This document shows, one piece after another, positions 4,001-43,146 of a stretch of DNA of 64,000 nt. Position 1 is the first letter of the stretch. The number at the start of each line of letters is the position of its first letter. Position numbers and translations under genes: made by a program. The notes under the pieces were generated by a model that saw only the letters and a list, made by a program, of their open reading frames with translations, was not told the origin of the DNA and made no database searches. Origin of the DNA: Firmicutes bacterium HGW-Firmicutes-12 (GTDB taxonomy: Bacteria > Bacillota > Peptococcia > DRI-13 > PHAD01); assembly GCA_002841595.1 (NCBI GenBank), contig PHAD01000001.1, positions 1,415-65,414 on the forward strand. Reading direction: 5' to 3'.

Positions 4001-4456
4001 CTATTCCACGGTTTTTATATTTTCAGCCTTATCAATAAACAAAACCCCATCTAAGTGATCAATCTCATGCTGCAAGGCTCTAGCAGTAATTTCTTCTCCT
4101 GTAATTTCAATTTCATTTCCTGCTCGATTTAAAGCCCTAACCTTTACTTTGTAAGCACGAGTTACATCGCCAACCAATCCAGGTACGCTTAGGCAGCCTT
4201 CTGTATCGGTTTGTTCGCCCTCACTCATTAATACTTCCGGATTTATAAGCTCCAGTAATTCATCACCAGTATCAACTATAATAACTCTTTTTGATATGCC
4301 TATCTGCGGAGCTGCAAGCCCAACTCCATTAGCTGCATACATGGTATCTTGCATATTATCAAGTAACTTAATAATATTCGGTGTTATCTCCTTGACTACC
4401 CGAGCATTTTCTCGTAATATACTATCGCCCTTTTTGACAATCTGGTAAATAGCCAT
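4001..4456 (-). CDS. def: Peptide deformylase
   Basis: All three Def motifs are present: [26 protein letters not shown]. Confidence 0.95.
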
Positions 4457-4486: not shown

Positions 4487-6913
4487 TCACATTAAATTCA
4501 GTGGTTCTACATCAACTATAACTCGTGGCTCTAAGTTAGAGTGCCCTACCTTGTCACGTGCAAAAGCAGCCAGTGCTTGTAAATGAGCGAGATTACTACC
4601 TTTTAGCAATATATGATATCGAAAACGACCCTTTAAAAAGAAAATTGGGGCTGGAGACGGACCATATATCTCTGCATCATAATTACTTCTTTCTATTTCT
4701 AACTTAAATATTTTCTTTAAAACATCCGTCTTGTCAAGTACTATTTTCTCCTTACTTCCACTAATAAGAACTCGAACTAAATAATGAAAAGGTGGATACT
4801 GCAAGGTCATTCTAATTTCCATTTCCTGGGTAATGTATGTTTCAAAGTCTTGTTCTACCACAGTTTTATATACATAATGATCGGGGTTAAAAGTCTGTAC
4901 AACTACTTCTCCAGCTTTATCGCCACGACCTGCACGGCCAGCAACTTGTGTAATCAGTTGATAGGATCTTTCTCCACTTTGATAATCAGGCATATTAATC
5001 ATGATGTCGGCATTAATAATCCCTACTAGTGTTACCTCAGGAAAATTAAGTCCCTTAGCTATCATTTGGGTTCCAATTATAACCTGGCTTTTACCCTGTT
5101 CAAACTCCTGCAGCAGTTGAAAATGACTTCCTTTGCGCCTCGTCGTATCAGCATCTATTCTCGTATATCGAACTTCTGGGAATAATTTTTCGAACTCTGC
5201 AGCAACCCTTTGGGTACCTGTTCCTAAGTAATGTAAAAAGTGACTACCGCAGGAGGGGCATTTCTGTACTGCCTTCTGTTGATAATTGCAATAGTGGCAA
5301 ATTAATTTGTTTTGTGATTGGTGATAGGTCATAGTAATAGAACAGCGCGGACAATTAATAGTTAGACCACATTCGCGACAAAGAAGAAAAGTATGAAAAC
5401 CACGTCTATTTATGAAGAGTATGGCCTGCTCGTTAGCTTGAAAAACCCTTTCCAGAGACTCTTGCAGGTATTGACTGAATACTCCTTTTTTTCCTTCTGC
5501 AGATTCCTTTTTCATATCCACAATTTTAATTTCTGGTAGTGGTCGTGAAGCTACCCGCAGAGGTAATCGTAGTAACTCATATTCCCCTTGCTGCGCTTCA
5601 TAGCATACTTGTAATGATGGAGTTGCCGAACCCCTAACTATTACGCTCTTATATATTTCAGCAGCTTTTTCAGCTACCCTTCTGGTATCATATCTGGGAT
5701 CAGGTTCATTCTGTTTAAAAGTATTCTCATGTTCTTCATCAATAATAATTAGTCCTAAATCAATAAAAGGGGCAAATACAGCTGACCGTGGTCCTAAGAC
5801 TATACTAGCCTCTCCTTTTTTTATTCTCTGCCATTCATCGTACCTTTCTCCTGCCGACATCGCACTATGCAAGAGGGCTACACCTGATCCAAAATTTTCT
5901 ATCAGAATAGATGTTATCTGTGGGGTCAAAGAAATCTCCGGTACTAGATAGAGTATCTGTCTACCCAACAGAAGTGTTTCTTCAATCGCTTTAAGATATA
6001 CTTCCGTTTTTCCACTACCAGTAACACCAAAAAGCAACCAGTTTTTTCTTTCTTTTCCTCTTATAGATTCACAAATTTTATTAACAGCATAATCTTGGTC
6101 ACTGTTCACACGAGTTGGTCTGCTTGTTTTCATCTTGCCCGTAACAGGGTTTCTTCTTTGGTTAGATTCAAATATGCTAATCCAGCCTTTTTCTTGCATA
6201 GTCTTAACTGAAAGATTTGATAGAACGCATGTTTTCCTAAGTTCCTCTACTGTTTTAGGTCCTTCCTGAAGGCTTTTAATTATTTCAGCCTGTCTAGGTG
6301 CCTTTTTCACTATATTCTGCCAGTCAGGAGCATTTGTAGAGAGCTCAAGATGGACATTCTTCTTTTCGTTAGTATGAGGCACATATTCTGTTTTTATTAT
6401 TAGTAGTCCTTGCTTAAGCAAAAACACTATAACCTCTTTTGCTTCGGCCCCAAATCGTTTTATCAGTTGAGCCACTGATAGACCGTTTTGAGACTTTTTT
6501 ACTACTTCATCATAAATAAGCCGCTCCAGGTTCCCTAACAAAAGATGTTGACTTGTATCATTATATCCCTCGACAAGGTACTTTCTTTCTTTTTGTCTTA
6601 TAGGTGGTGGGAGAAATAAGTGCACAGTTTTGTTTAATGAACATAGATAGTATTCACTCATCCAGCGAGCAATCTCCAGTCCAACTGCCGTGATTAATGG
6701 CCCCGCGGACAAAGTATCTTTCAGTGGTAATAGCCTACTTATCTCAGGTCTCTTTTCGTAAATATTAATTATAAGTCCCTTTTCTAATTGACCCCTTACA
6801 GTAACAGCCACAAGATTACCCGTTTCAATCATACTTAAGTGATCAGGTATACTATATGTCAGTATTTGGTCATAGTTGCTTTCAGGACGAAGGATTAGGA
6901 CATCTGTAAACAT
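4487..6913 (-). CDS. priA: Primosomal replication-restart helicase PriA
   Basis: 808 aa with Walker A GVTGSGKT, IIDEEH box and the Cys4-type zinc region CRECG..CPRC..CHYC..CPSCG. Confidence 0.95.
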   Translation of the reverse strand: MFTDVLILRPESNYDQILTYSIPDHLSMIETGNLVAVTVRGQLEKGLIINIYEKRPEISRLLPLKDTLSAGPLITAVGLEIARWMSEYYLCSLNKTVHLFLPPPIRQKERKYLVEGYNDTSQHLLLGNLERLIYDEVVKKSQNGLSVAQLIKRFGAEAKEVIVFLLKQGLLIIKTEYVPHTNEKKNVHLELSTNAPDWQNIVKKAPRQAEIIKSLQEGPKTVEELRKTCVLSNLSVKTMQEKGWISIFESNQRRNPVTGKMKTSRPTRVNSDQDYAVNKICESIRGKERKNWLLFGVTGSGKTEVYLKAIEETLLLGRQILYLVPEISLTPQITSILIENFGSGVALLHSAMSAGERYDEWQRIKKGEASIVLGPRSAVFAPFIDLGLIIIDEEHENTFKQNEPDPRYDTRRVAEKAAEIYKSVIVRGSATPSLQVCYEAQQGEYELLRLPLRVASRPLPEIKIVDMKKESAEGKKGVFSQYLQESLERVFQANEQAILFINRRGFHTFLLCRECGLTINCPRCSITMTYHQSQNKLICHYCNYQQKAVQKCPSCGSHFLHYLGTGTQRVAAEFEKLFPEVRYTRIDADTTRRKGSHFQLLQEFEQGKSQVIIGTQMIAKGLNFPEVTLVGIINADIMINMPDYQSGERSYQLITQVAGRAGRGDKAGEVVVQTFNPDHYVYKTVVEQDFETYITQEMEIRMTLQYPPFHYLVRVLISGSKEKIVLDKTDVLKKIFKLEIERSNYDAEIYGPSPAPIFFLKGRFRYHILLKGSNLAHLQALAAFARDKVGHSNLEPRVIVDVEPLNLM

Positions 6914-7030
6914 TCTCTACACCACTTGTATATTTTGTCTTGTTTACCCAATTGTATCATTTAAAAACCACATACGATAGGTTATAGTTATCCATCTATT
7001 ATATTAAGATAAGATTAAAGGCCTTGTCGG

Positions 7031-7066
7031 AAAAAAGGATGCTGGCATTATCCCCTGCCAGCATCC
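7031..7066 (-). terminator. Rho-independent terminator after metK (usable in both directions)
   Basis: GGATGCTGGCA (7037-7047) pairs with TGCCAGCATCC (7056-7066) around an 8-nt loop. An A6 run at 7031-7036 gives a U-tract on the minus strand, and TTTT follows on the plus strand. Confidence 0.7.
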
Positions 7067-7109
7067 TTTTAAAATAATACACGTTATCCAGCATATCTGT
7101 TTTTTTATA

Positions 7110-8297
7110 CTATTTTATATTAAAATAACTTTTCAATTCTTCGACCTTATTTAGTCTCTCCCAAGACAAATCCAGATCATTGCGGCCAAAATGGCCATAG
7201 GCAGCAACTTGTCGATAAATCGGCTTGCGTAGTTTTAAGTCTCTTATTATTGCGGCAGGACGAAGATCAAATATCTCCTTTACTGCCATGACGATATCTT
7301 CTTCAGATACCTTTCCAGTATCAAAGGTTTCAAGCATGATACTTACGGGGCTTGCTACTCCAATAGCATAAGCCACCTGAATTTCACACTTGTCAGCAAG
7401 GCCGGCAGCTACAACATTCTTTGCAACATGCCTGACCGCATATGCCCCCGAGCGGTCAACCTTAGTCGGGTCTTTACCTGAAAAGGCACCACCGCCGTGG
7501 CGGGCCATTCCCCCATATGTATCTACGATTATTTTTCTACCGGTTAAGCCAGCATCACCGGCCGGTCCACCAATAACAAAGCGCCCAGTAGGATTAATCA
7601 TATAACGGGTAGAATTATTTACTAACTCTGCAGGCAGTACAGGAATAATTACTTCCCTGATTATTTCTTCAGTTATATCTTTTACCATAACACTATCTGC
7701 ATGTTGCGTAGAAAGAACTATAGTATCAATCCTAACCGGTCTGCCTTCATCATATTCGACTGTAACTTGGGCTTTACCATCGGGTCGTAAATAAGGAAGT
7801 TGCCCACTCTTTCTTGCATCTGCCAATTTCCTAGTTATTTTGTGAGCCAAAGATATAGTAAGTGGCATATATTCAGATGTTTCGTTCGATGCATAACCAA
7901 ACATCATCCCTTGGTCACCTGCACCGATAGCATCAATCATTTCTTCGCCCAGCTTTGCTTCAAGAGCTTGATCTACGCCAAGAGCAATATCCGGTGATTG
8001 TTCATTTATGGCGGTAAGTACCGAACAAGTATCACAGTCAAAGCCGTACTTTGCTCGAGTATATCCAATATCCTTGATGACTTCACGTACTATCTTAGGA
8101 ATATCTACATAACAAGAGGTTGTTATTTCCCCAAATACTAATACTAATCCGGTAGTAACTGAGGTTTCACAGGCAACCCTGCCCATGGGATCTTCTGCAA
8201 GAATTGCATCTAAGACACCATCAGAAATCTGATCAGCCATCTTATCTGGATGACCCTCGGTAACTGATTCGGATGTAAAAAGCTTTTTCTTGGTCAT
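7110..8297 (-). CDS. metK: S-adenosylmethionine synthetase
   Basis: [17 protein letters not shown] and [16 protein letters not shown] motifs. Only 6 nt separate it from coaBC, so there is no room for a riboswitch. Confidence 0.97.
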
Positions 8298-20830: not shown

Positions 20831-22258
20831 CTACCTCACAACCTCAAGTAAAACTTCATTTTCAATTACTTCGAGGAAAGTTTTAACAAGCTCAGGTTGA
20901 AATTGAGTGCCCGAGCATCTTACTAATTCTCGTAAAGCATCTTCTTTAGTCTTAGGAATGTTATAGTACCTGGGATTTGTCATAGTATCATATGCATCTA
21001 GTATAGAAATTATCCTACAATCCATAGGTATGTCCTTTCCGCTAATCTTTGCGGGATAACCCGTCCCATCCCACCATTCATGATGATGTAGGATTAGTCC
21101 GGATATATGAGACACCTCACCCGATCTAGAGGCAATATTATATCCTATATTAACATGTGTTCTAACTCTATTTCTCTCCTCCTGGGTTAATTCTCCTGGT
21201 TTAAAAAGAATCTCATCGGGAATTCCTATATTTCCAAGGTCATGTAGTTTTGCGAGAAGAATTAAATCTTCCTTTTCTTTTTCACCTAAATCCAGTCTTT
21301 TGGCCATTTCTTCAGCTAGAAGTGCCATTCTATCCGCATGTCCCTGGGATATATAATCTCTTTCTGATAAGGCCGAAAGAAAGAAATCAATGACTCTACC
21401 TTTTATATGAACATCTTTATTAAATTTTTGATAATACATATCATCATCAGCACGATGATAGATATCATATACAGTTTCATATTCGTTATTTTGATCCGAG
21501 GTTGCTACCCCAACGGACACACTAAGCGGTATGAAGGGGTTTTTATTATTATGATTTTCTACCGCCTCCAATATATCATTTTTCCTTTGCTGAGCAACAG
21601 TATTGGGCATATTTGGTAACAATATACAGAACTCATCTCCGCCAGCGCGTACTAGAGTATCTTCTTTGCGGATAGAGGTCTTTAATAGTTCTGCCACAAA
21701 TTTTAACTGTTTATCCCCAGCCTGATGGCCGAAGGTATCATTGACAATTTTATGACCATCTATATCTATTGATATCATACTTAAGGGTAGTACCTCACGA
21801 ATATTTCTGCTTATTCGCTTCATTTCATATTCAAAATACGAACGGTTATACAAACCTGTAAGAGTATCAAAAAAACTTAAATATCTGTACTTCTTTTCAC
21901 TTTCTTTTAACTCATGCTGTTTGTTCCTTAGTTCCTCCAGCATTTTATTAATAGAACTTCCCAGTTCCGCTACATCGTTCAAGCCGGTTATGGTAATAAA
22001 TGCCCCGGGCTCACTCTTAATTCTTATATATTCTATACCTTCATGAATTTGTCTAAGAGGATGTGAATACATTTTTTCGATATATAAGTTCATTACAAGC
22101 CCCACAATAATTCCAACGGCTGCCATAGTAAGATAAAAGTAAGATATGCTTTGTGTATTAGGCAGTTTTAGGAACAATCGGTTAGATAAACAAGCAATAA
22201 CCATGGTACACATAAATGTAATACCGGTTATTCTTAACCAATTACCCTTGTTAAACAT
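20831..22258 (-). CDS. Membrane GGDEF + HD-GYP c-di-GMP protein
   Basis: 2 TM and a linker, GGDEF intact (RAGGDEFCILL) with an RxxD I-site (RKED), and HD-GYP (LHDLGNIG, HHHEWWDGTGYP). GGAGG lies 5 nt before ATG 22258. Confidence 0.88.
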   Translation of the reverse strand: MFNKGNWLRITGITFMCTMVIACLSNRLFLKLPNTQSISYFYLTMAAVGIIVGLVMNLYIEKMYSHPLRQIHEGIEYIRIKSEPGAFITITGLNDVAELGSSINKMLEELRNKQHELKESEKKYRYLSFFDTLTGLYNRSYFEYEMKRISRNIREVLPLSMISIDIDGHKIVNDTFGHQAGDKQLKFVAELLKTSIRKEDTLVRAGGDEFCILLPNMPNTVAQQRKNDILEAVENHNNKNPFIPLSVSVGVATSDQNNEYETVYDIYHRADDDMYYQKFNKDVHIKGRVIDFFLSALSERDYISQGHADRMALLAEEMAKRLDLGEKEKEDLILLAKLHDLGNIGIPDEILFKPGELTQEERNRVRTHVNIGYNIASRSGEVSHISGLILHHHEWWDGTGYPAKISGKDIPMDCRIISILDAYDTMTNPRYYNIPKTKEDALRELVRCSGTQFQPELVKTFLEVIENEVLLEVVR

Positions 22259-22366
22259 TTTGTCCTCCAATTTTAATAGATTAATAGACCTATATTTTTA
22301 TTCAACATTTTTTTATTTTCACCTTCTACTTTTTTTTATTTTTCTTTCTTTAACTCTTGAGGACAG

Positions 22367-33179: not shown

Positions 33180-33677
33180 TTAGAGGTATTTTACTTGAGT
33201 TTTTAATGCAAAGGAAAATTTATCTACTGCCCTTAGTGTCGCGATTATTCCGTCAAGATGATCATATTCATGTTGTAACAACTCAGATAACGAACCCTCA
33301 AGCATCATTGTGCTTTCATTCCAATCATTATCTTTATACCTAATACTGCTATTTTTGTATCTCTTCACTTTCACTAGAAGGTTCGGAAAACACATACAAT
33401 CGTCCCATACTTCAAAGGTTTCATCCCCTTTTGTTTTCAATACTGGGTTAATGAAAACTACTGGTCTTTCAATATACATATAAATTAATCTTTTCATAAT
33501 TCCAATTTGTGGGGCTGCTATCGCACGACCTACTCCATGTTTTTTCCGAAAATCCATAAGTGTATCATGCAAATCTTGAATAACTGTGTTAATGCACTCT
33601 AACTCTGATTTTTCCCATGGCGTACTCACTTCATATAATTGAGGGTTACCTAATAGCAACAATTCTCGAACAGCCAT
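33180..33677 (-). CDS. Second, divergent peptide deformylase-like protein
   Basis: Motif 1 GVGRAIAAPQIG, motif 2 altered to DDCMCFPN (Cys kept), motif 3 HEYDHLDG. Confidence 0.8.
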   Translation of the reverse strand: MAVRELLLLGNPQLYEVSTPWEKSELECINTVIQDLHDTLMDFRKKHGVGRAIAAPQIGIMKRLIYMYIERPVVFINPVLKTKGDETFEVWDDCMCFPNLLVKVKRYKNSSIRYKDNDWNESTMMLEGSLSELLQHEYDHLDGIIATLRAVDKFSFALKTQVKYL

Positions 33678-33764: not shown

Positions 33765-33914
33765 TTAGTTATTTATACTCTCTAAAAAAGGTTTGATTAT
33801 AACCAATGCTTGTGACGCAATAACATTTTGAAAAAATAGATTAATAGTAACAAGTTCAGAATTAGTAATTGCAAAAATTAGACTTGAAATAAACAGAATT
33901 TGACTCTTTTGCAT
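33765..33914 (-). CDS. Possible 49-aa single-TM protein, fourth gene of the CheR operon
   Basis: MQKSQILFISSLIFAITNSELVTINLFFQNVIASQALVIIKPFLESINN. AAAGGGA lies 7 nt upstream, and the ORF starts 16 nt after the response-regulator stop. The ORF-track version (start 33992) overlaps that gene. Confidence 0.3.
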   Translation of the reverse strand: MQKSQILFISSLIFAITNSELVTINLFFQNVIASQALVIIKPFLESINN

Positions 33915-33930
33915 TTTCATATCCCTTTCT

Positions 33931-35805
33931 TCAGAAATCACCAGTATCGCTGTTAATTGCATTGTTTGGGATTGAGAGAAATGCTTCCACAATTTCAGGA
34001 TCGAACTGAATGCCTGTATTTTTCTTCAACTCATCAATCGCTTTTTTCTTGCTCATTGGTTTCCTATAGGATCTTTGTGATGTCATGGCATCATACGCAT
34101 CTGCAACTGCGATGATTCTTGATTCGATTGGAATTTCCTCTCCTTTTAGTCTATTCGGATAGCCCATTCCATCCCATCTTTCGTGATGTGCTACAACATA
34201 ATCGGAGATTTCAGCAAATTCTTTGACCGCAGAAAGGATGCGCCTGCTTGATTCTGGATGTTTACGAATCTCAATCCATTCATCCTCATCAAGCGTTCCA
34301 TATTTATTAAGCACTTTTTCATCCACACTGATTTTTCCAATGTCATGAACAAGTCCGGCTATTTTGATGGTATTAATTTCATCCTCATCAAAATTAAGAG
34401 CTAAAGCAATTAATTCACAAATCTGGCTAACCCGTTTTGAATGTGCACTTTCCCTTGCACTTTTTTCAAAAAGACTGTTCATAATCACTTCTATTGTCTT
34501 ACTTCTCATGCTGGCGCTTTCAAATGCTTTATGCTTGTACATATAGTTTTCAGCATTGGCAAAAATTTCATTGATGTCCTCACGAACTTCCGACTTTGTC
34601 GCATGCCCAAATGATATCGAGAGCACATAAGTATTAGTATTGCCTTTGACAATATTTTCTCTTATACGCCTGATAAGGTTTTCTGCACTATTTCGGTCTG
34701 TTTGAGGCAATATAAGTGCGAACTCATCTCCGCCAACTCTAGCGATAATATCGTCGGCCCGGCAGGCTTCTTGGATTACCTTTGCAGCTTTCTTGAGCAA
34801 TTCATCTCCCGCAGCATGGCCAAAGGAATCGTTGACCAGTTTAAGTCCATTCACATCAGCCATTACAATGGTTAGAGGAAGATTTCTGGCTTTATCCAAG
34901 CGCTTAACCTCCTCCTCAAAAAAACGTCGGTTATATAGCCCAGTCATATGATCGTGATAGCTCAGAAAAAGCAATTTTTCTTCTGCTTTCTTGCGCTCTG
35001 TAATATCAACTCCAATGGAAAAAAAATGCTTTAACAAACCTTGTTCATCAAATATTGCACTGTCCCGCCATTCCTGCCATTTCTCTTCACCATTCAGCAT
35101 TACTTTATGAACATACTGGTTTGAAGGATTTCTGGGACTTAAGGATAGATATTTTTTCCTCACCTTTTCTCTTGAATTCTCGGGTAATAAATCAAGAAAG
35201 GCCTTGCCAATCAGATCTTCCCTGCTCATTTGAAAATATCTGCAGTAGGTTTTATTGACATATGTCAAAGTGCTGTCAGGCATAAATTCACAAATAAGCG
35301 CCGGCAGGTCATCCAATATATTTTTGTACTTCTCTTTTAAATCAATAATGTCTTTTGTTCTTTCATTTACCAGAACATTCAATTTTTCGTTTTCATTACT
35401 GTTTATGATATTCCTTTCTCTAATTTTCAGCATTCCACGAAGCTGAACATAGAATTCTATTTCATCGATGGGTTTGTTAATAAAAGCTTCCGCTCCACTT
35501 TCCAAAGCCTTTAAACGATTTTCCTTATCACTTTTTAATGCAGTCACAAAGATTACCGGTATCCCATTATGCCTGGGGTTCGCTTTCAGCCGCCGGCAGG
35601 TCTCGTAGCCGTCCATGCCTGGCATGAGAATATCAAGGAGAATAACATCAGGTTCATTGACCTTAGCTATTTCTATACCTGCTTCTCCGCTTTGGGCTGT
35701 GAAAATCTCGACATGAGGGAACGACTCATTAATCAGTGCTTTTAAGCTGATCAGATTACCCTGATTATCGTCTATCAGGAGGAATTTACTTTTCTTATTT
35801 CCCAT
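33931..35805 (-). CDS. Response regulator REC-PAS-GGDEF-HD-GYP
   Basis: REC (LLDILMPGMDG), PAS, GGDEF (RVGGDEFALIL, I-site RADD) and HD-GYP (HDIGKISV, HHERWDGMGYP). GAGGGGG lies 6 nt before ATG 35805, and the gene overlaps the HK stop by 11 nt. Confidence 0.9.
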   Translation of the reverse strand: MGNKKSKFLLIDDNQGNLISLKALINESFPHVEIFTAQSGEAGIEIAKVNEPDVILLDILMPGMDGYETCRRLKANPRHNGIPVIFVTALKSDKENRLKALESGAEAFINKPIDEIEFYVQLRGMLKIRERNIINSNENEKLNVLVNERTKDIIDLKEKYKNILDDLPALICEFMPDSTLTYVNKTYCRYFQMSREDLIGKAFLDLLPENSREKVRKKYLSLSPRNPSNQYVHKVMLNGEEKWQEWRDSAIFDEQGLLKHFFSIGVDITERKKAEEKLLFLSYHDHMTGLYNRRFFEEEVKRLDKARNLPLTIVMADVNGLKLVNDSFGHAAGDELLKKAAKVIQEACRADDIIARVGGDEFALILPQTDRNSAENLIRRIRENIVKGNTNTYVLSISFGHATKSEVREDINEIFANAENYMYKHKAFESASMRSKTIEVIMNSLFEKSARESAHSKRVSQICELIALALNFDEDEINTIKIAGLVHDIGKISVDEKVLNKYGTLDEDEWIEIRKHPESSRRILSAVKEFAEISDYVVAHHERWDGMGYPNRLKGEEIPIESRIIAVADAYDAMTSQRSYRKPMSKKKAIDELKKNTGIQFDPEIVEAFLSIPNNAINSDTGDF

Positions 35806-38779
35806 AAAGTACCCCCTCAATGATTCTCATGAATTGCTTTTCAATAATAGGCTTGGGAATGAATGCATCAAATCCATGGGCCAAATATATTTCTCGATCT
35901 GTAGTCATGGCACTTGCTGTAAGAGCAATTATAGGAATATGTGCTAGGTTAGGGTTTTTCCGAATAGCCCGGAAAGCTTCCACACCATCCATTCCAGGCA
36001 AGGCAATGTCCATCAAAATCAAATCCGGCATATGAATCCCGGCTAGCTCAACAGCAGCTTCCCCATCCTCAGCCTCTACGATGTTAAAGATATCCTTTAG
36101 CAAAGCTTTCACAGTAAGCCTGTTATCCGGATTATCCTCTACTACTAAAACAATAGGCTTCTCAGGTATTTCCATTTGTTCCTTATGAACTGGTTTGGTT
36201 GGTTTCACCGCCGGAAGGAACATGGATGCCACTGCATCCTGAAGTTCCCTTCTGTCCAAGCTGCCCTTTTGAATCAACTGATGGACATTATTAAGCGCTA
36301 ATGTTCTCAATTCTTCTTTTTCAATATGCTTGGCGGTCAGAACCAAAACCGGAACATGAGCGCTCTTGTAACTATTTCTAACTTCCTTCAAAACTTGAAA
36401 CCCATCCTTTATCGGCATCATTAAATCAAGAATGATGCCATCCGGAATGCTTTCTTCCATTTTTTTCAGGGCCTCGGCACCATCATTGGTCACAGTGATT
36501 TGATATTCCTCCTCAGAAAGGGCGTCACGCAGCTGAATAATAGCCGGTTCGCTGTCTTCAACAATTAAAAGCTTATAGCCCTTGTCCCTTATGTCTGCAC
36601 TTTGGGTTTCTGTTATTGTTGAAATCTGATTAGCATAGCTGGAGGTATCTGGTTTATACACTTCTTTTAATAATTTTGTTGCTTCCTGCTGCAAGGGAAT
36701 TGTTACGGTAAATATGGACCCTTTGTCAAGGGTGCTTTCCACTTCAATCCTTCCACCCAACATCTCTGTGTATCTCTTCGATATGGCAAGGCCAAGCCCG
36801 GTACCGCCATATTTTCTGGTGGTGCTGCCATCAGCTTGTCTGAATTCCTCAAAAATATGTGTAAGATGTTCCTTTACAATCCCGATACCCGTATCAGAGA
36901 CCGCAATGACAACTTGTCCGTCACTTTCATATGCGGAAACTTCCACCCTTCCTTCGTCTGTGAATTTGATGGCATTACCCATTAAGTTTTGCAGGATGTG
37001 GCGCATTTTTTGTTCATCACTGACCAAGGGTATTTCCCTATCGGCATTGTTATAAACGATTTCGATGCCTTTCTGTTCCGCAACCGGCCGCAGCATCTCC
37101 AAGAGTTCGTTTATAAGGCTGTTTAGGTTAAAGTAGTCATTTTCAATTTCCACACGTCCGGACTCAATTCTTGAAATATCCAAAATATCGTTGATCATAG
37201 CCAGAAGGCTCTTGCCGCTTTTATCAATTACCTCAAGATAGCTGTATTCTTCGTCAGATATTTGATTCTTCAGTCGACGATAGAGAACACCTGAAAGAGC
37301 TATGATAGAGTTCAAAGGTGTTCGCAGTTCATGACTCATATTGGAGAGGAAGTTCGTTTTAAGCCTGCTGACTTCACTCAGTTCTTCATTTTGCTTTTCT
37401 AACTCAGTCTTTTGTTGTTCAATTTCAGCGGCCTGGATCTGAAGTTCAGCTTGCTGTTGTTTCAGCTCTTCATTTTTAGTTTCTAGTTCGTCTCTTATTT
37501 GTCTGATTTCATTATTACTCAAAATCCCAAGCATTCGTGTGTTCAGAATCGGGTAAATATTTTCAATAAGATTTAACGCCATCGGCTCAAAGCCGCTGAT
37601 ACTTGCCAGCGTTACAATTAAAATCACTTCATCCTTTTCCACGATTGGGATTGTGATGATTTCCTTTGGAAAAAGCTCACCGTAAGGGAGAGGATGCTGG
37701 AATCGAACATCCTCCGTGTTCAAGGTAAATTTTTCAATCTTTCCTGAGGCAACGACCCGTCCAAGATCGCCTTCCAGATGCTCAATGTTAAATGAAGCGC
37801 GGCCTTGATCGTTCATGCCAATGGAGGTTGCTATTTCGAAAATTTTTTGATCAGTTGAGCGTAAATATACTGCGCCAAGCTCGCCGCCAGTGTGTTTTAT
37901 CATACTCAAAAGCACTACTTGGAAAAATTGATTTATTAATTCGGTGCTCAGTAACTTATTGGTAATAACGCTAGCTTTTTCATTAATAATCATTTCGAGC
38001 TCCAATGTATTGAACATTTCGTTCAGCGCTTTGGAGATTTTGCCAAATTCGTCAGGACGAATTATCCGGGACCTCGTTTCATACTTGCCTTTAGAAAAAT
38101 CCTCCATGACACGCTGCATCTCAAAAAGTGGTGTTTTTATTAGCTGATAGATATACCGGGATAATACAAAAACTAAAATTAAACAAAGAAGTATGATAAT
38201 CCCCATCTGGAGATACGTTGTTCTAAGCGTCCCCATTGAATCGGCATAGAGCTCATCCGCTATATTTTTTGCAAAGCTATCAACTGCTTCAAGCTTTTCT
38301 GATAATTGAAGTTTCAGCGGGGAAGGTCCTACATATTCCCCCATACTTTTGAAAGCAGCCGCTCTATCTCCTTGCTCAATAAGCTCGATACGCTTTTCAA
38401 TGTTCTCTTCCCATAATAAATATGCTTTTTCTATTTCCAAAATATCTTCCTGGGAACCCATATAACGCTCTTTTAAAATCTGAAATTGCTGTTCTATATC
38501 GACTTTTCTCTTGATAATTTCATTCCGCCAATAGGTCATGCCCTCTGGTTCTTCTACTATAAGCATTATCCGCATGTGCAAAGTTATATTATCTGTGGCA
38601 ATTTCTAATTTGGAGATGGCTCTTCGAACCTGGAGCGGATTATTATACAGCTTTTCTGAATAGGAGTGCGTATTATATATTTCCCAGAAACTAACGATTG
38701 ATAATAGTGCTAATAAGAACAAAACTATAGCATAGCTTAATTTTATTTTGCTCCCAACCTCTAAATTATTTATTTTCAT
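35795..38779 (-). CDS. Hybrid sensor histidine kinase (TM, helical sensor, TM, HAMP, GAF, coiled coil, HisKA, HATPase, REC, REC)
   Basis: H-box SHELRTPLNSI, N-box NLMGNAIKFT, G-boxes DTGIGI and GGTGLGLAISK, receivers with ILDLMMP and LMDIALPGMDG. GAGGGA lies 6 nt before ATG 38779; the ORF track uses TTG 38806. Confidence 0.9.
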   Translation of the reverse strand: MKINNLEVGSKIKLSYAIVLFLLALLSIVSFWEIYNTHSYSEKLYNNPLQVRRAISKLEIATDNITLHMRIMLIVEEPEGMTYWRNEIIKRKVDIEQQFQILKERYMGSQEDILEIEKAYLLWEENIEKRIELIEQGDRAAAFKSMGEYVGPSPLKLQLSEKLEAVDSFAKNIADELYADSMGTLRTTYLQMGIIILLCLILVFVLSRYIYQLIKTPLFEMQRVMEDFSKGKYETRSRIIRPDEFGKISKALNEMFNTLELEMIINEKASVITNKLLSTELINQFFQVVLLSMIKHTGGELGAVYLRSTDQKIFEIATSIGMNDQGRASFNIEHLEGDLGRVVASGKIEKFTLNTEDVRFQHPLPYGELFPKEIITIPIVEKDEVILIVTLASISGFEPMALNLIENIYPILNTRMLGILSNNEIRQIRDELETKNEELKQQQAELQIQAAEIEQQKTELEKQNEELSEVSRLKTNFLSNMSHELRTPLNSIIALSGVLYRRLKNQISDEEYSYLEVIDKSGKSLLAMINDILDISRIESGRVEIENDYFNLNSLINELLEMLRPVAEQKGIEIVYNNADREIPLVSDEQKMRHILQNLMGNAIKFTDEGRVEVSAYESDGQVVIAVSDTGIGIVKEHLTHIFEEFRQADGSTTRKYGGTGLGLAISKRYTEMLGGRIEVESTLDKGSIFTVTIPLQQEATKLLKEVYKPDTSSYANQISTITETQSADIRDKGYKLLIVEDSEPAIIQLRDALSEEEYQITVTNDGAEALKKMEESIPDGIILDLMMPIKDGFQVLKEVRNSYKSAHVPVLVLTAKHIEKEELRTLALNNVHQLIQKGSLDRRELQDAVASMFLPAVKPTKPVHKEQMEIPEKPIVLVVEDNPDNRLTVKALLKDIFNIVEAEDGEAAVELAGIHMPDLILMDIALPGMDGVEAFRAIRKNPNLAHIPIIALTASAMTTDREIYLAHGFDAFIPKPIIEKQFMRIIEGVLYGK

Positions 38780-38798
38780 ATTGTATCCCTCGCTTTGT

Positions 38799-39617
38799 TT
38801 AAACAATGGTTTTCTTAGAAACAGGACCGGATTTGACGACCGCAGTGATTCCCATTTGCTTCGACAATATAGCTTTCTCCGCTTCTCCGACTACCAAATA
38901 CCCTCCGGGAGACAAGGCTTTTATAAGTTTATTGATAATAAACCGCTGCGCCTTGTCATTATAGTAAATCAGCAGGTTGCTGCAGATGATCAGGTCAAAA
39001 TGCCCATAAATGCTCTCCGGAGGAGAGACTGTGTTTTGATCTAAAATGTCATAATATAAAAAGTCTACACTGTTCTTTATATCAGGGGCTATCCGATAAG
39101 CATTCCCCGTCTGATCAAAATGATCATCAAGGTAACCAAGCGGTACCTTTTTTAGTTCATTCCTATTGTATATTCCATACCTTGCGCGGTCGAGTGCTTG
39201 GTTTGAAATGTCCGTGGCATACATATGCAGCCGCATTTTAGACTTAAATAGCTCTGAAACTTCCCGAGCCAGCATAAGAATAGAATAGGGCTCTTGACCG
39301 GCCGAGCAGCCGACTGACCACATCCGGATCTCCCGGCTGTCTTTTTTACTGTTGAAAATATCCGGCAGCACGCGGCTTTCCAGCAGGGCAAAAGCAAAAG
39401 GTTCCCTGAAAAATTCTGAATACCCATTATTCAGCAGCGCAAGGAATAAAACACTTTCTTCGCCACTTCTTTCAAGGATTTCTTCATATTGCTTTGCTGT
39501 ATCAATCTTTAGTTCCTTCATCCTTTTAATAACAGTCGTTTCTATCAGTTTTGGGCTGAAGTTCTCAAGAGATTTCATTGCGCATATATCTGCCACAGAA
39601 AATATTTCTTTTTCCAT
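38799..39617 (-). CDS. cheR: CheR-type protein-glutamate O-methyltransferase (orphan)
   Basis: FFREPFAF, IRMWSVGCSAGQEPYSILML, ATDIS and FDLIICSNLLIYY..LSPGGYLVVGEAE, which is the full CheR N- and SAM-domain motif order. Confidence 0.85.
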   Translation of the reverse strand: MEKEIFSVADICAMKSLENFSPKLIETTVIKRMKELKIDTAKQYEEILERSGEESVLFLALLNNGYSEFFREPFAFALLESRVLPDIFNSKKDSREIRMWSVGCSAGQEPYSILMLAREVSELFKSKMRLHMYATDISNQALDRARYGIYNRNELKKVPLGYLDDHFDQTGNAYRIAPDIKNSVDFLYYDILDQNTVSPPESIYGHFDLIICSNLLIYYNDKAQRFIINKLIKALSPGGYLVVGEAEKAILSKQMGITAVVKSGPVSKKTIV

Positions 39618-39649: not shown

Positions 39650-40053
39650 CTAATTCTCGGATTTCAGCTTAATTCTATTTCCTGGCAAGGCTTCAAAGAT
39701 TTTATGATATTTTCCGCATCTTGCTCTTACCTGCGTGTATTTTGCCTTTTCACCGTTTTTCTTTACATATAATCTTCTCTCATAAATCTCGTCCGCCAGG
39801 TCGGCTGCATGCATGATATAGTCATCTTTTTCAAGCAAAATGAGCCGCATCGCTTCGTGTAAAGTATAATTCTTGTTCGAAACAGCAGCGTTTGCGAATA
39901 AGTTCCCATTGGCTTCGTATTTCTGAATAATAAAACTACTCGTCCATTGAGTTCGACCATTTCTAGCACTGAATCCAGCTCTGCTAAAAATTTTTCAAAG
40001 GTTATTAAATTTTCGAGTTTTATTTCTATTTTTCGACACCTCGCAAATATCAT
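39650..40053 (-). pseudogene. Frameshifted small gene: Phd/YefM-like N-terminal part plus a winged-helix (HARE-HTH/Mrr_N-like) C-terminal part
   Basis: Frame A reads ITFEKFLAELDSVLEMVELNGRVVLLFRNTKPMG. Frame B continues NLFANAAVSNKNYTLHEAMRLILLEKDDYIMHAADLADEIYERRLYVKKNGEKAKYTQVRARCGKYHKIFEALPGNRIKL. Neither frame alone makes a plausible protein. Confidence 0.3.
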
Positions 40054-40208
40054 ATATCGTCCGATAAATTTTGGTAAATACAATTATATATGTAATTGTA
40101 TTTAAACTGCAGCACACTCTGCAATTATTTCAATAGCTTATAAAGCCTAAAAATACTCACAGCTAAGGCAAACCGCCCTTATCTTTTAATTTCTGTGCCA
40201 TCCTTAAA

Positions 40209-42926
40209 TCAAATTTCACAAATATCACTAATAACATTGTCAATAAAAACCGAAACAATTCTAGGATCAAATTGTGTCCCAGAACATTTTCTCAACTCAG
40301 CAATTGCTTCTTTTTTTGTTAAAGTATTTTTATATGTTCTTTGCTCTGTCATAGCATCATACGCATCGACAACAGCGATAATCCTCGCCATAATAGGAAT
40401 TCCTTCTCCTTGCAATCCCTCGCAATAGCCTGATCCATCCCATCTTTCATGATGAGCGGCAATCACATAACTTATGTCCTCATATTCATCTGTCTCCTCC
40501 AAAATCGCAGCTCCTTTTATCACATGCTGTTTCATCAGTTCCCACTCTGAATCGTTGAGTTTTCCCTCTTTATTGAGAACCGTTTCACTTATACCAATTT
40601 TGCCAATATCATGAAGCATTCCCGCTATTTTTATTCTATTAATGCTGTAAATATCCCAGCCTAAAGCTTCTGCTATTGCTTCACAGTGTTGTGAGACGCG
40701 TTCGGAATGCCTTTTTTCTCTCTCGCTTTTTTGAAATAAAGTACTCATCATTGCCTTAATCATGTTGCTTCGCGTACTTTTATCATTATAATACTTTCTT
40801 CGATAGAGGAACCCTTCAGCCTCCTTCATTAGACCATCTAAATCTTGATTGTGGTCTATTTGCATACCGTAACCAAAGGAAACTGACAAATACACTTTAG
40901 CCTCTTCACTATTCGTAAGCACAACATATTTATCCAATTCTTTTTCAAGAAGATTAGTCAACTTCATAACATATTCTGATGTAGCATTCGTAATCAAAAT
41001 GCCGAATTCATCTCCACCAATCCTAGCTAGAATATCATTGCTTTGGATTAATAAACCAATCTCTTTAGCCACCTCTTTAATAAGCTCATCGCCTATTGCA
41101 TGGCCGAAACTTTCATTAACCATTTTTAAACCGTTTATATCCCCTACAATAATAGCTAAAGTCTGATTTTGCTTTTTATTTAACCTATAAAATGATTCCT
41201 CAAAATACCGTCGGTTATAAACCCCCGTCAAATAGTCTTGGAAGGCCAGCGTTTTTATCTCTTTCATAGCTTCCTCTTTTTCGGTCACATCAAAGATAAT
41301 CGATATTAACACTTGTTTTTCATTGAATATTATTGGACTGCAGTGGACATCCACCACTCGAATTTCACCATTTTTCAATTTATGCAGTAACGTGAAATAT
41401 TTTTGTGCTCTTTCTAGTGCTCTGAGTCTTAATTCCTTCACCTTTTCGGTTTCCAGCATATTGATATCCTGAATGTGCATCTCTAGAAATTCTTCCTTAG
41501 TATAGCCATAAAAGTCTATGGCAGTTGGATTAGCATCTAGTATTTTTCCTGTTTCAGGTTCTATAAACAAAATAACTGCCGAATTATTTTCAAAGATCGC
41601 TCTTAACCTTTTAAGCTCATTCTTTTCTTTTTCTTCCAGCTTTTTTCTTTCAGTTATATCAGTCCCAATTGAATAATATAGCTTGGCTTTGCTATTGTTG
41701 TCAAAAATTGCTCTATTCTTCCATTCATACCAGAACAACTTGTCATTTTTTAATATCTGTTGAACATAACCGTTTGATGAATTCTGCTGGATTAAAGATG
41801 AATATTCTTCAGCAGCTTTTTTCCGTTCATCATCGGGTAGAAGATGCAAATATTTCTTTCCTAGCAATTGTTCCTTTGACATGTCATAATAATCACAATA
41901 CTTTTTATTCACATATGTAAGTGTGCTGTCAGGTAGAAATTCAGCTATCAATGCGGGCAAATCATCCAGAATTCTCCTGTATTTTTCCTTCATTTCAAAG
42001 ATATCCTGAGTCTTTTTTTTAACTTCTTTTTTAAGACGATTAACCCAAAAAAGCGATACCAATAATGAAATTGCTATTATACCCCCAAGTATAAGTATCA
42101 ATATAATCAAGGGTCCATAATCATTTTCTATATCGATATCCACCCATTTGTTAATGATGGCCTGCTTTTCTTCTTCAGTTATACCGGCCATAGTCTTATC
42201 TATAACGCTGACTAATTCCGGCCAGCCTTTGCGAGCTGCAAAATGCAAAGAGTTCTTTTTTTCAGCTTCAAAAGCTATTAATTTAAGGTCTGGTAAGGCT
42301 ACGGTTTTAATCAGGTAATTTATTACCGTAAGATTCCCAACAAAAACGCACTCTGTGCCGTCGGCTACGGCTGCCAGCGCGGATTCAACTGAATCATAGA
42401 GACTTAGATTTATTTCCGGAAAGGACAATAAATAGCTGTGATGTGAGCTGTTTCTTTGAACAGCAACAGTTAAGCCCTCTAAATCTTTTATACTGGATAT
42501 GTCAGTTTCCGTGTTTTTTATGACTATTGCTCTTTTGAAGTAACAATAAGGTTTGGAAAAGAGGAAGTACTGTTCCCGTTCCTCATTTTTGCCAATAGCT
42601 GGAAGTATATCGATTTCTCCTTCGATTGCCAAATCATAAGCTTCCGGCCATGTCAGACCCTGAACCACTTCAAAAAGAAGTCCGGTTCTCTCACTAATAA
42701 TTCCAAGATAATCGGCTGCAATACCCTTATATTCAGCTTCCTCATCTATGAACTCAAAAGGTTCAAAACCCGGATCGACACCAATTCTTATAACTGGGTG
42801 CAGCTTAATAAAGGTCTGCTCGTCTTCAGTCAAACGAATATTATTGTCCAAGGCATAGCAAGGAGCAGTTATAATTAACAAATATATTAACAATAGTAAG
42901 CTGAGAAATAAGCGCTTAAACATCAT
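40209..42926 (-). CDS. Periplasmic solute-binding (SBP_bac_3) - TM - PAS - PAS - GGDEF - HD-GYP(GYC) protein
   Basis: Signal/TM MMFKRLFLSLLLLIYLLIITAPCYA, PBPb-type domain, 2 PAS, GGDEF (RIGGDEFGILI; I-site position reads QSND), HD (LHDIGKIG) and HHERWDGSGYC. GAAGGAG precedes ATGATG at 42926/42923. Confidence 0.9.
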   Translation of the reverse strand: MMFKRLFLSLLLLIYLLIITAPCYALDNNIRLTEDEQTFIKLHPVIRIGVDPGFEPFEFIDEEAEYKGIAADYLGIISERTGLLFEVVQGLTWPEAYDLAIEGEIDILPAIGKNEEREQYFLFSKPYCYFKRAIVIKNTETDISSIKDLEGLTVAVQRNSSHHSYLLSFPEINLSLYDSVESALAAVADGTECVFVGNLTVINYLIKTVALPDLKLIAFEAEKKNSLHFAARKGWPELVSVIDKTMAGITEEEKQAIINKWVDIDIENDYGPLIILILILGGIIAISLLVSLFWVNRLKKEVKKKTQDIFEMKEKYRRILDDLPALIAEFLPDSTLTYVNKKYCDYYDMSKEQLLGKKYLHLLPDDERKKAAEEYSSLIQQNSSNGYVQQILKNDKLFWYEWKNRAIFDNNSKAKLYYSIGTDITERKKLEEKEKNELKRLRAIFENNSAVILFIEPETGKILDANPTAIDFYGYTKEEFLEMHIQDINMLETEKVKELRLRALERAQKYFTLLHKLKNGEIRVVDVHCSPIIFNEKQVLISIIFDVTEKEEAMKEIKTLAFQDYLTGVYNRRYFEESFYRLNKKQNQTLAIIVGDINGLKMVNESFGHAIGDELIKEVAKEIGLLIQSNDILARIGGDEFGILITNATSEYVMKLTNLLEKELDKYVVLTNSEEAKVYLSVSFGYGMQIDHNQDLDGLMKEAEGFLYRRKYYNDKSTRSNMIKAMMSTLFQKSEREKRHSERVSQHCEAIAEALGWDIYSINRIKIAGMLHDIGKIGISETVLNKEGKLNDSEWELMKQHVIKGAAILEETDEYEDISYVIAAHHERWDGSGYCEGLQGEGIPIMARIIAVVDAYDAMTEQRTYKNTLTKKEAIAELRKCSGTQFDPRIVSVFIDNVISDICEI

Positions 42927-43146
42927 GCTCTCCTTCGTAAATAGTGTTCTGCATGAGTTCTCCGACTGGAGGTTCAACCGGAAAACGAACATACTATGAG
43001 TTGTTGCAAGCTAATCTTTCAAAGACCGAGTCAAGCTCTGGTAATAATCTTTCATAGGGAATCAGATTTCTGAGTTCTATATCCATTTTCCGACACTCTT
43101 CGACACTCAAATTTATCATACAATAAGGAGCATAGTTTTTCAATTT

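Follow-up and report, generated by a model that had tools for sequence, protein, structure and literature searches.

The closest described counterpart of the locus analysed here is the RsbK/RsbM pair of Bacillus cereus. RsbK is a CHASE3-HAMP-GAF-S-helix-HK-CA-REC protein (S-helix, signalling helix) encoded in one operon with RsbM, a CheR-type enzyme that methylates the S-helix of RsbK, with the result that sigma-B is repressed (PMC4574943). RsbM has been termed an orphan, "unpaired to a cognate methylesterase", and deletion of the sole cheB was without effect; 127 RsbK-like kinases have been counted across 10 phyla (PMC4574943), and a genomic association of RsbK with CheR had been found earlier by de Been and colleagues, according to a 2026 paper (PMC12848376). 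Here, we describe a three-gene cassette encoding a CheR-like methyltransferase, a hybrid sensor histidine kinase and a response regulator in a 64,000-nucleotide stretch of Firmicutes bacterium HGW-Firmicutes-12, a metagenome-assembled genome (MAG; contig PHAD01000001.1, positions 1,415 to 65,414). This whole stretch is called the window, and coordinates below are positions within it. It is likely, in our view, that the operon is a methylation-tuned two-component system, in which the CheR-like enzyme methylates the signalling helix of the kinase and so sets the output of the kinase to the regulator.

Several features bring the cassette close to RsbK/RsbM: a membrane kinase with a sensor of the 4HB clan outside the cell, followed by HAMP, GAF, S-helix, HisKA, HATPase and C-terminal REC domains; a co-operonic CheR-type gene with no cognate esterase (here within 8-10 kb on either side); a helix ahead of the H-box that serves, or here is predicted to serve, as the methyl acceptor; and a REC-containing enzyme as output. 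The cassette has the architecture of the RsbK/RsbM kind, as judged by comparison with the published description of that system rather than with its sequences. The two differ in what is controlled, the output here being a REC-PAS-GGDEF-HD-GYP protein of cyclic di-GMP (c-di-GMP) metabolism, whereas in B. cereus it is RsbY, a REC-PP2C protein acting on RsbV, RsbW and sigma-B; domain scans of the window found no PP2C, STAS or anti-sigma genes. In addition, the sensor here scores as 4HB_MCP_1 and not as CHASE3, two families of one Pfam clan.

A partial parallel is provided by the cfcABCDE cluster of Pseudomonas putida, where the CHASE3/GAF hybrid kinase CfcA (phospho-histidine H496) is encoded beside a non-chemotactic CheR (CfcB) and a CheB (CfcC), and is needed for the activity of the c-di-GMP regulator CfcR (PMC4951495, PMC6849547). 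Mutants in cfc genes other than cfcA retained the phenotype, and in the accessible text of these P. putida papers methylation of CfcA is not shown (PMC4951495, PMC6849547). The cfc system thus shares with the present locus a hybrid kinase next to CheR and a REC-containing c-di-GMP enzyme as output; unlike it, the cfc cluster encodes a CheB, and CfcR is a REC-GGDEF-EAL protein encoded elsewhere. The Wsp system of Pseudomonas (WspA-F/WspR) likewise couples a 4HB_MCP_1 sensor and CheR-type methylation to a phosphorylated REC-GGDEF protein with c-di-GMP output. Wsp, however, comprises the signalling domain of methyl-accepting chemotaxis proteins (MCPs), CheW, CheA and CheB, none of which is present in the window, whereas receptor and kinase are here joined in a single HisKA-type protein. 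Finally, CheB-CheR-PAS-HisKA fusions also tie a CheR domain to a HisKA kinase outside chemotaxis. These are single polypeptides of 1400-1900 residues and, unlike the kinase described here, possess neither the 4HB-HAMP-GAF sensor nor the ladder of Glu and Gln residues reported below; seven examples were found among the weaker matches of our genome search (L040, L043, L044, L061, L068, L071 and L077), with a CheB domain in all seven loci.

The cassette is not a chemosensory system of the Che or Wsp type: its kinase has HisKA and HATPase domains and no MCPsignal domain, and neither CheA nor CheW is encoded in the window. Of the open reading frames (ORFs) of at least 100 residues in the whole window, none contained a CheA, CheW, CheB, MCPsignal or Hpt domain (for 28.6-51.6 kb, domains were taken from precomputed annotations available for the identical contig), and tblastn with CheB and CheW probes gave no match in the window. 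An earlier note on this DNA, made from the letters and their translations, had remarked on the lack of an MCP signalling domain, CheA, CheW and CheB, and this holds.

The three genes of the cassette lie head to tail on the minus strand. The first encodes the CheR-like protein of 272 residues, a methyltransferase of the S-adenosylmethionine (SAM)-dependent protein-glutamate type assigned to a kinase-linked CheR subfamily, and extends from an ATG at 39617 to a TAA at 38801-38799. The gene for the 994-residue kinase runs from an ATG at 38779 to a TAA at 35797-35795, and that for the 624-residue response regulator from an ATG at 35805 to a TGA at 33933-33931. Direct reading of the sequence gives a 19-nucleotide spacer holding GAGGGA between the CheR-like and kinase genes, and an 11-nucleotide overlap between the kinase and regulator genes, with GAGGGGG preceding the regulator ATG. 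The short gap and the overlap, with a Shine-Dalgarno motif at each junction, are the reason for reading a tight operon, and as far as sequence can tell the CheR-like, kinase and regulator genes form a real, conserved and tightly packed one. A scan for promoters and terminators between 33.1 and 43.4 kb returned only as many sites as expected from shuffled sequence, and therefore no transcript boundaries are claimed. The coordinates given in the earlier note for these genes and for a small downstream ORF agree with the sequence and the ORF table, and the CheR motifs and the kinase coil that it picked out are all present in the translations.

The CheR-like protein contains a Pfam CheR domain (E = 1.4e-47) and the motifs FFREPFAF, WSVGCSAGQEPYS, DLIICSNLLIYY and GGYLVVGEAE. 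In phmmer comparisons it matched the solved CheR structures 5FTW, 5XLY/5Y4R and 1AF7/1BC5 with E-values of 1e-26 to 1e-23. An AlphaFold2 model (pLDDT 90), with helices at residues 22-63, was compared with the PDB by Foldseek: the best 10 matches were all CheRs aligned over the full length, with a gap of ten orders of magnitude in E-value after them, and full-length TM-scores to 5FTW, 1AF7 and 5Y4R were 0.65-0.79. Pfam scans of the three cassette proteins recovered the domains that had been expected save CheR_N, for which there was no match in the CheR-like protein at E < 0.01; according to the model, the two-domain CheR fold with its N-terminal helical domain is kept. A scan of the three proteins against NCBIfam yielded no specific equivalog.

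Alignment with relatives separates what this enzyme shares with other CheRs from what sets its clade apart. Residues FFR69-71, W100, C104, GQE107-109, S112, TD135-136, FD207-208, C212, N214, Y218 and E247 show little or no variation throughout the clade. The CheR signature motifs are invariant in 40 relatives and common also to CheB-linked CheRs, with the exception of R213, which is invariant in the CheB-linked enzymes, S in the protein studied here, and S or C in most members of the clade. Other clade changes in the catalytic domain are N190 to D and F219 to Y. The differences between kinase-linked and CheB-linked CheRs cluster in the N-terminal helical domain, where R28 and L29, invariant in 12 CheB-linked CheRs, are replaced by S/T and I/L in the kinase-linked clade, and where R32, Y44 and E54 are clade-specific. 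In Salmonella CheR, the N-terminal domain touches the methylation helix of the receptor. The changes in the N-terminal helices and at R213 would thus fit an altered substrate. Degeneration of the SAM-binding residues had been named in the earlier note as a finding that would refute its proposal; on alignment, neither the catalytic nor the SAM motifs are degenerate, and the pattern as a whole fits an enzyme that is predicted to be catalytically competent but specialised.

An alternative explanation would make the CheR-like protein a non-catalytic or SAM-sensing binder of the S-helix, with its occupancy by SAM or S-adenosylhomocysteine (SAH) acting as the signal and no turnover taking place. This would agree with the replacement of R213 in most clade members and with the absence of an associated esterase, a reversible covalent cycle not being evident. 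The invariance of FFR, GxGQEPYS, TD, FD, CxN and Y218 across the clade, however, fits a working enzyme, and RsbM does pass methyl groups to RsbK (PMC4574943). We consider such a function unlikely, and methylation of the adjacent kinase remains the preferred reading.

The kinase comprises, in order, a transmembrane segment, the 4HB sensor, a second transmembrane segment, HAMP, GAF, the S-helix, HisKA with the phospho-accepting H483, HATPase and two REC domains with D785 and D924. Pfam identifies 4HB_MCP_1 (residues 5-181), HAMP (212-260), GAF_2 (283-406), HisKA, HATPase_c and two Response_reg domains. Hydropathy in 19-residue windows places the transmembrane segments at about residues 8-37 and 184-215, from which an extracytoplasmic domain of roughly 150 residues follows. 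The GAF match is weak (22.5 bits against a gathering score of 28.6), while relatives of the kinase match GAF and GAF_2 without a weak flag in precomputed annotation. The description of the protein as beginning like a chemoreceptor is correct for the sensor and HAMP domain and stops there, as Pfam detects no MCP signalling domain.

The S-helix, which includes the coil ELETKNEELKQQQAELQIQAAEIEQQKTELEKQNEE, occupies kinase residues 424-470 (37370..37510, minus strand) and is the predicted methyl-accepting segment. It follows a heptad L-x-x-Q-x-x-E, with a ladder of four glutamates at E438 (minus-strand codon 37468-37466), E445 (37447-37445), E452 (37426-37424) and E459 (37405-37403). When 25 non-identical kinases were aligned and anchored on the phospho-histidine, the approximately 55 preceding residues were free of gaps, with Leu at H-51, -44, -37, -30, -23 and -16, Gln at H-48, -41, -34, -27 and -20, and Glu at H-45, -38, -31 and -24, the last being 88-100% conserved. 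The same four positions are Glu in 82-91% of 130 family representatives with a recognisable H-box. In 40 control kinases (other HisKA proteins from the same loci), Glu occurs at the ladder positions at 2.5-37%, and all four glutamates together are present in 21/25 family kinases versus 0/40 controls. Judged on these alignments, the heptad ladder of Glu and Gln sets this family apart from other kinases.

The ladder can also be set against RsbK, whose phospho-histidine is H505. Work by Chen and colleagues from 2012 reportedly identified E439 of RsbK as the preferred methylation site and E446 as a minor one, and a literature search for E439 or Glu439 together with RsbK found nothing. These two residues would stand at H-66 and H-59, seven apart, which we take to be the same heptad phase as H-45 and H-38 of the ladder.

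The extent of the kinase family was estimated with a HMMER search using kinase residues 1-472 (sensor and helix), which replaced a word-index search with residues 1-470 that had returned 3 matches, its index being flooded by coiled-coil words. At a threshold of E <= 1e-30 the HMMER search gave 178 cluster representatives, and at E <= 1e-10 it gave 643. With few exceptions, family representatives are colinear across residues 1-472, most often with the architecture sensor-GAF-helix-HK-REC-REC. Among 149 representatives, the only CheR-kinase fusion was the fragmentary 388-residue P0266, which is not relied on. Five members (P0159, P0173, P0187, P0191 and P0251) have an additional N-terminal segment of about 228 residues ahead of the 4HB sensor, without a CheR domain. 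In a separate observation, locus L033 of Flavobacterium sandaracinum, which has CheB and CheR domains, encodes a 1174-residue kinase with a different E/Q-rich helix (QNLKQQQEELQMTNEELEEQTQSLEE...) before its H-box; it may represent a second, esterase-containing class of methylated kinases, perhaps CfcA-like.

The third protein of the cassette combines Response_reg, PAS, GGDEF (E = 2.9e-36) and HD_5, that is HD-GYP (E = 6.6e-42), domains. It has D58 in the REC domain, an RADD I-site at 349-352, GGDEF at 358-362, HD at 487-488, HH at 540-541 and GYP at 548-550. Since the catalytic motifs of both output domains are retained, cyclase and phosphodiesterase activities are both plausible, and the regulator is a predicted bifunctional diguanylate cyclase/phosphodiesterase.

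Conservation of gene neighbourhood indicates that the CheR-like gene does not lie beside the kinase gene by accident. An alignment of 40 CheR relatives was used to scan 185,579 species-representative genomes and returned 80 loci, which were then ORF-called and searched with domain probes from the window proteins; three of them (L011, L022 and L030), mis-split or missed by the ORF caller, were corrected by tblastn. Immediately downstream of CheR, 23 of the 24 best matches (L009-L032, E <= 6e-44) carry a homologous kinase of about 990 residues, whose similarity to the window kinase runs from end to end and takes in the sensor. The 23 paired loci are spread over Bacillota, Chloroflexota, Verrucomicrobiota, Bacteroidota, Desulfobacterota and relatives, and one Methanoregula MAG. 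The complete three-gene order recurs in a paralogous locus of the same MAG (P0031, L003/L004), in Gottschalkiaceae bacterium SANA (L006), in a metagenome contig (L008) and in the complete genome of Dehalobacter sp. DCM (L089); in L003, L006, L008 and L089 the gene junctions are near-zero or overlapping. The paralogous cassette is 37% identical to that of the window in CheR and 44% in the kinase. Pairwise identity matrices of CheR and kinase are correlated (r = 0.80; Mantel test, 0/2000 permutations), which we read as no more than compatible with joint inheritance, because shared phylogeny contributes to it. The archaeal example (L013, Methanoregula sp. MAG, JAPKXV010000050.1) lies on a 4.7-kb contig with CheR at 638-1420 and the kinase downstream, and could reflect horizontal transfer or a binning error.

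What follows the pair is less constant. The third gene encodes a REC-(PAS)-GGDEF-HD-GYP protein in every Firmicute locus where it is visible (the window, L003, L006, L008, L010 and L089); elsewhere it encodes a REC-HD-GYP protein (L020), a 1657-residue REC...HD-GYP protein (L011), a REC-PAS/GAF-HisKA_3 kinase (L024) or, in most Gram-negative loci, a REC-HisKA kinase. Comparison of these neighbourhoods indicates that CheR and kinase form a portable pair of genes, which occurs across phyla and is coupled to different outputs. Because the third gene varies and the kinase is constant, the kinase rather than the output protein is the likely CheR substrate.

This bears directly on a rival in which the methyltransferase targets the regulator or another c-di-GMP enzyme, for example its PAS-GGDEF-HD-GYP part, instead of the kinase. 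Such a target would agree with the constant presence of a GGDEF-HD-GYP output in Firmicute cassettes, and it draws on the one unpaired locus of a Christensenellaceae MAG (L021, OY771363.1, 7905-10786), in which CheR is directly followed by a PAS-GGDEF-HD-GYP gene with no kinase, its product being 40% identical to the window regulator. L021 nevertheless looks like a deletion remnant of the Firmicute cassette, because its regulator homologue has lost REC; outside Firmicutes the third gene usually encodes a REC-HK or another kind of protein, with the kinase staying the same, and the family-specific Glu ladder sits in the kinase. A regulator target is therefore judged very unlikely, although L021 offers a natural test for a second CheR target.

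A further possibility is that the gene is a displaced chemotaxis cheR whose product acts on MCPs, its adjacency to the kinase being meaningless. The protein is a genuine CheR by sequence and fold, the inventory given above is one of the window, and in one Deltaproteobacteria MAG (L019) a CheV-like CheW-REC gene (6763-7716) lies 234 nucleotides upstream of the kinase-linked CheR. Within 8-10 kb on either side, however, the clade showed no other neighbour of chemotaxis type. Over the same distance no CheB was found in 29 clade loci (L001-L032 minus L021, L022 and L030, where the ORF caller had overlooked CheR), whereas the CheB catalytic domain, detected with a probe verified by Pfam, is present in 33/56 loci with other kinds of CheR; these weaker matches (L033-L088) are either CheR-HK fusions of 1400-1900 residues or classical CheY/CheB/CheR clusters. 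Adjacency to the kinase across phyla and its duplication in the same MAG, the N-terminal substrate-recognition helix and R213 position unlike those of CheB-linked CheRs, and a score of 108.5 bits against the NCBIfam chemotaxis CheR equivalog NF007902, far under its cut-off of 435, all argue against displacement, to which we give very little credence indeed.

The preferred reading, that the CheR-like enzyme acts on the kinase, can be cast as a sequence of events. From the order of domains, signals would be sensed by the extracytoplasmic four-helix bundle and the cytoplasmic GAF domain, and relayed through HAMP and the long coiled-coil signalling helix to H483 in the dimerisation and histidine phosphotransfer (DHp) domain. 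The co-translated CheR-type enzyme would use SAM to place a methyl ester on at least one of E438, E445, E452 and E459. If Leu is assigned to position 'a' and Gln to 'd' of the heptad, the ladder glutamates would take position 'g', beside the core of a parallel coiled coil, and their neutralisation could alter both the packing of the coil and its interplay with the C-terminal receivers, thereby setting the balance between kinase and phosphatase activity. Phosphoryl groups would pass from H483 to D58 of the regulator; direct transfer is favoured because neither the cassette nor the window encodes an HPt domain. The kinase receivers (D785 and D924) are probably inhibitory or sink domains, by analogy with the proposal made for D827 of RsbK, and phosphorylation of the regulator would move it between GGDEF cyclase and HD-GYP phosphodiesterase activity. 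Since no dedicated esterase appears to belong to the module, methylation is best understood as a licensing mark or a set-point, and not as a loop for fast adaptation.

The core proposal of the earlier note, that an orphan CheR targets the kinase encoded next to it, with methylation and phosphotransfer together setting c-di-GMP turnover, is supported by the conserved pairing, the Glu/Gln ladder, the intact CheR motifs and the RsbM/RsbK precedent (PMC4574943). Several points weigh on the other side. The acceptor glutamates are candidates named from conservation, and the ladder could be purely structural, for instance through inter-helix salt bridges with N, K or A at position 'e'. The lack of an HPt domain in the scans of cassette and window makes the route of phosphotransfer to the regulator uncertain. 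As the inventory is one of the window, CheB, CheD or MCP substrates may be encoded at a distance in the MAG. The likeness to B. cereus, moreover, is one of architecture only: there rsbK precedes rsbM and the kinase has one receiver, whereas here cheR comes first and the kinase has two.

With respect to novelty, an orphan CheR without esterase that methylates a hybrid kinase has already been characterised in RsbM/RsbK (PMC4574943), with cfc as a partial parallel, and the claim that no such arrangement was known had been overstated. The cassette is a c-di-GMP-output variant of the RsbM/RsbK methylated-sensor-kinase scheme and introduces no new principle; what is new is the c-di-GMP output, the two receivers and the gene order. 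A literature search found no paper on an operon of CheR, an RsbK-like kinase and a REC-GGDEF-HD-GYP protein. A 2022 census of sensory inputs to c-di-GMP names CheR only within chemosensory systems (PMC8846402), and for this reason the CheR-kinase input route seems unappreciated in the c-di-GMP field. The locus would extend a mechanism known from a single model, the control of sigma-B in B. cereus, to c-di-GMP signalling in anaerobic Firmicutes. The conserved ladder, for its part, offers concrete predicted acceptor sites in a widespread clade and could help explain how covalent neutralisation of charge in such a helix comes to control a kinase.

A broader and more tentative view, which we regard as possible though rather doubtful, is that the cassette belongs to a large, unnamed family of esterase-free "methyl-set" hybrid kinases. 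In these, a ladder of 4-5 glutamates at position 'g' of a coiled coil with a Gln core would be methylated at multiple sites and serve as a slow rheostat, as a memory or as an indicator of SAM/SAH status, directly gating bifunctional GGDEF-HD-GYP enzymes in Firmicutes. The family in question numbers about 180 clusters at 50% identity, with members in five or more bacterial phyla as well as an archaeal MAG. If true, methylation would thereby be linked to c-di-GMP without the need for a chemosensory array.

The remainder of the window consists of housekeeping genes, further GGDEF-HD-GYP proteins and a PhoR/PhoB-like pair. Tandem GGDEF-HD_5 proteins are encoded on the minus strand at 20831-22270 (479 residues), 40209-42992 (with SBP_bac_3-PAS-PAS) and 33931-35805 (the REC-PAS regulator of the cassette), and another GGDEF-HD-GYP protein is found in the paralogous cassette of the same MAG (L003); the organism appears to lean heavily on bifunctional enzymes of this type. 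The SBP_bac_3-PAS-PAS-GGDEF-HD-GYP gene (40209..42992, minus strand; 927 residues; domains by Pfam) is the 5' neighbour of the cassette. A similar flanking gene is present in L010 and not in L003, L006 or L089, and it is thus a possible functional neighbour rather than a conserved member of the cassette.

Downstream of the cassette lies the small hydrophobic ORF (33765..33920, minus strand; 49-51 codons), which starts at ATG 33914, 16 nucleotides past the regulator stop, or at an alternative ATG at 33920, and stops at 33765. It has no Pfam match, and tblastn finds it in the identical contig only and not in L003, L006, L008 or L010. The proposal that this 49-codon ORF is part of the cassette was not borne out, as tblastn revealed no relative in related cassettes; lacking both Pfam match and conservation, it was rejected as a member of the system. 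It probably stands outside the system and is possibly no gene at all.

Between the SBP_bac_3 gene and the cheR-like gene, an intergenic inverted repeat of 15+15 nucleotides (TAAATACAATTATAT/ATGTAATTGTATTTA; 40075..40104, no strand assigned), located by a repeat search 5' of the cassette, is 93% complementary and has no spacer. A weak promoter-like hexamer pair at 40078-40049 overlaps it, and the repeat may be an operator or may be functionless. The same interval holds two minus-strand ORFs of 106 and 66 residues in different frames (39650-40083), with no significant Pfam match to either. Residues 15-69 of the 106-residue ORF have a 38%-identical copy (42934-43098; E = 1.7e-7) just 5' of the SBP_bac_3 gene, which could be what remains of a duplicated gene, or else a leader element present twice. 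Lastly, the window contains two peptide deformylase genes on the minus strand, at 4001-4456 and 33180-33677, one in the usual def-fmt context and the other directly downstream of the signalling cassette.

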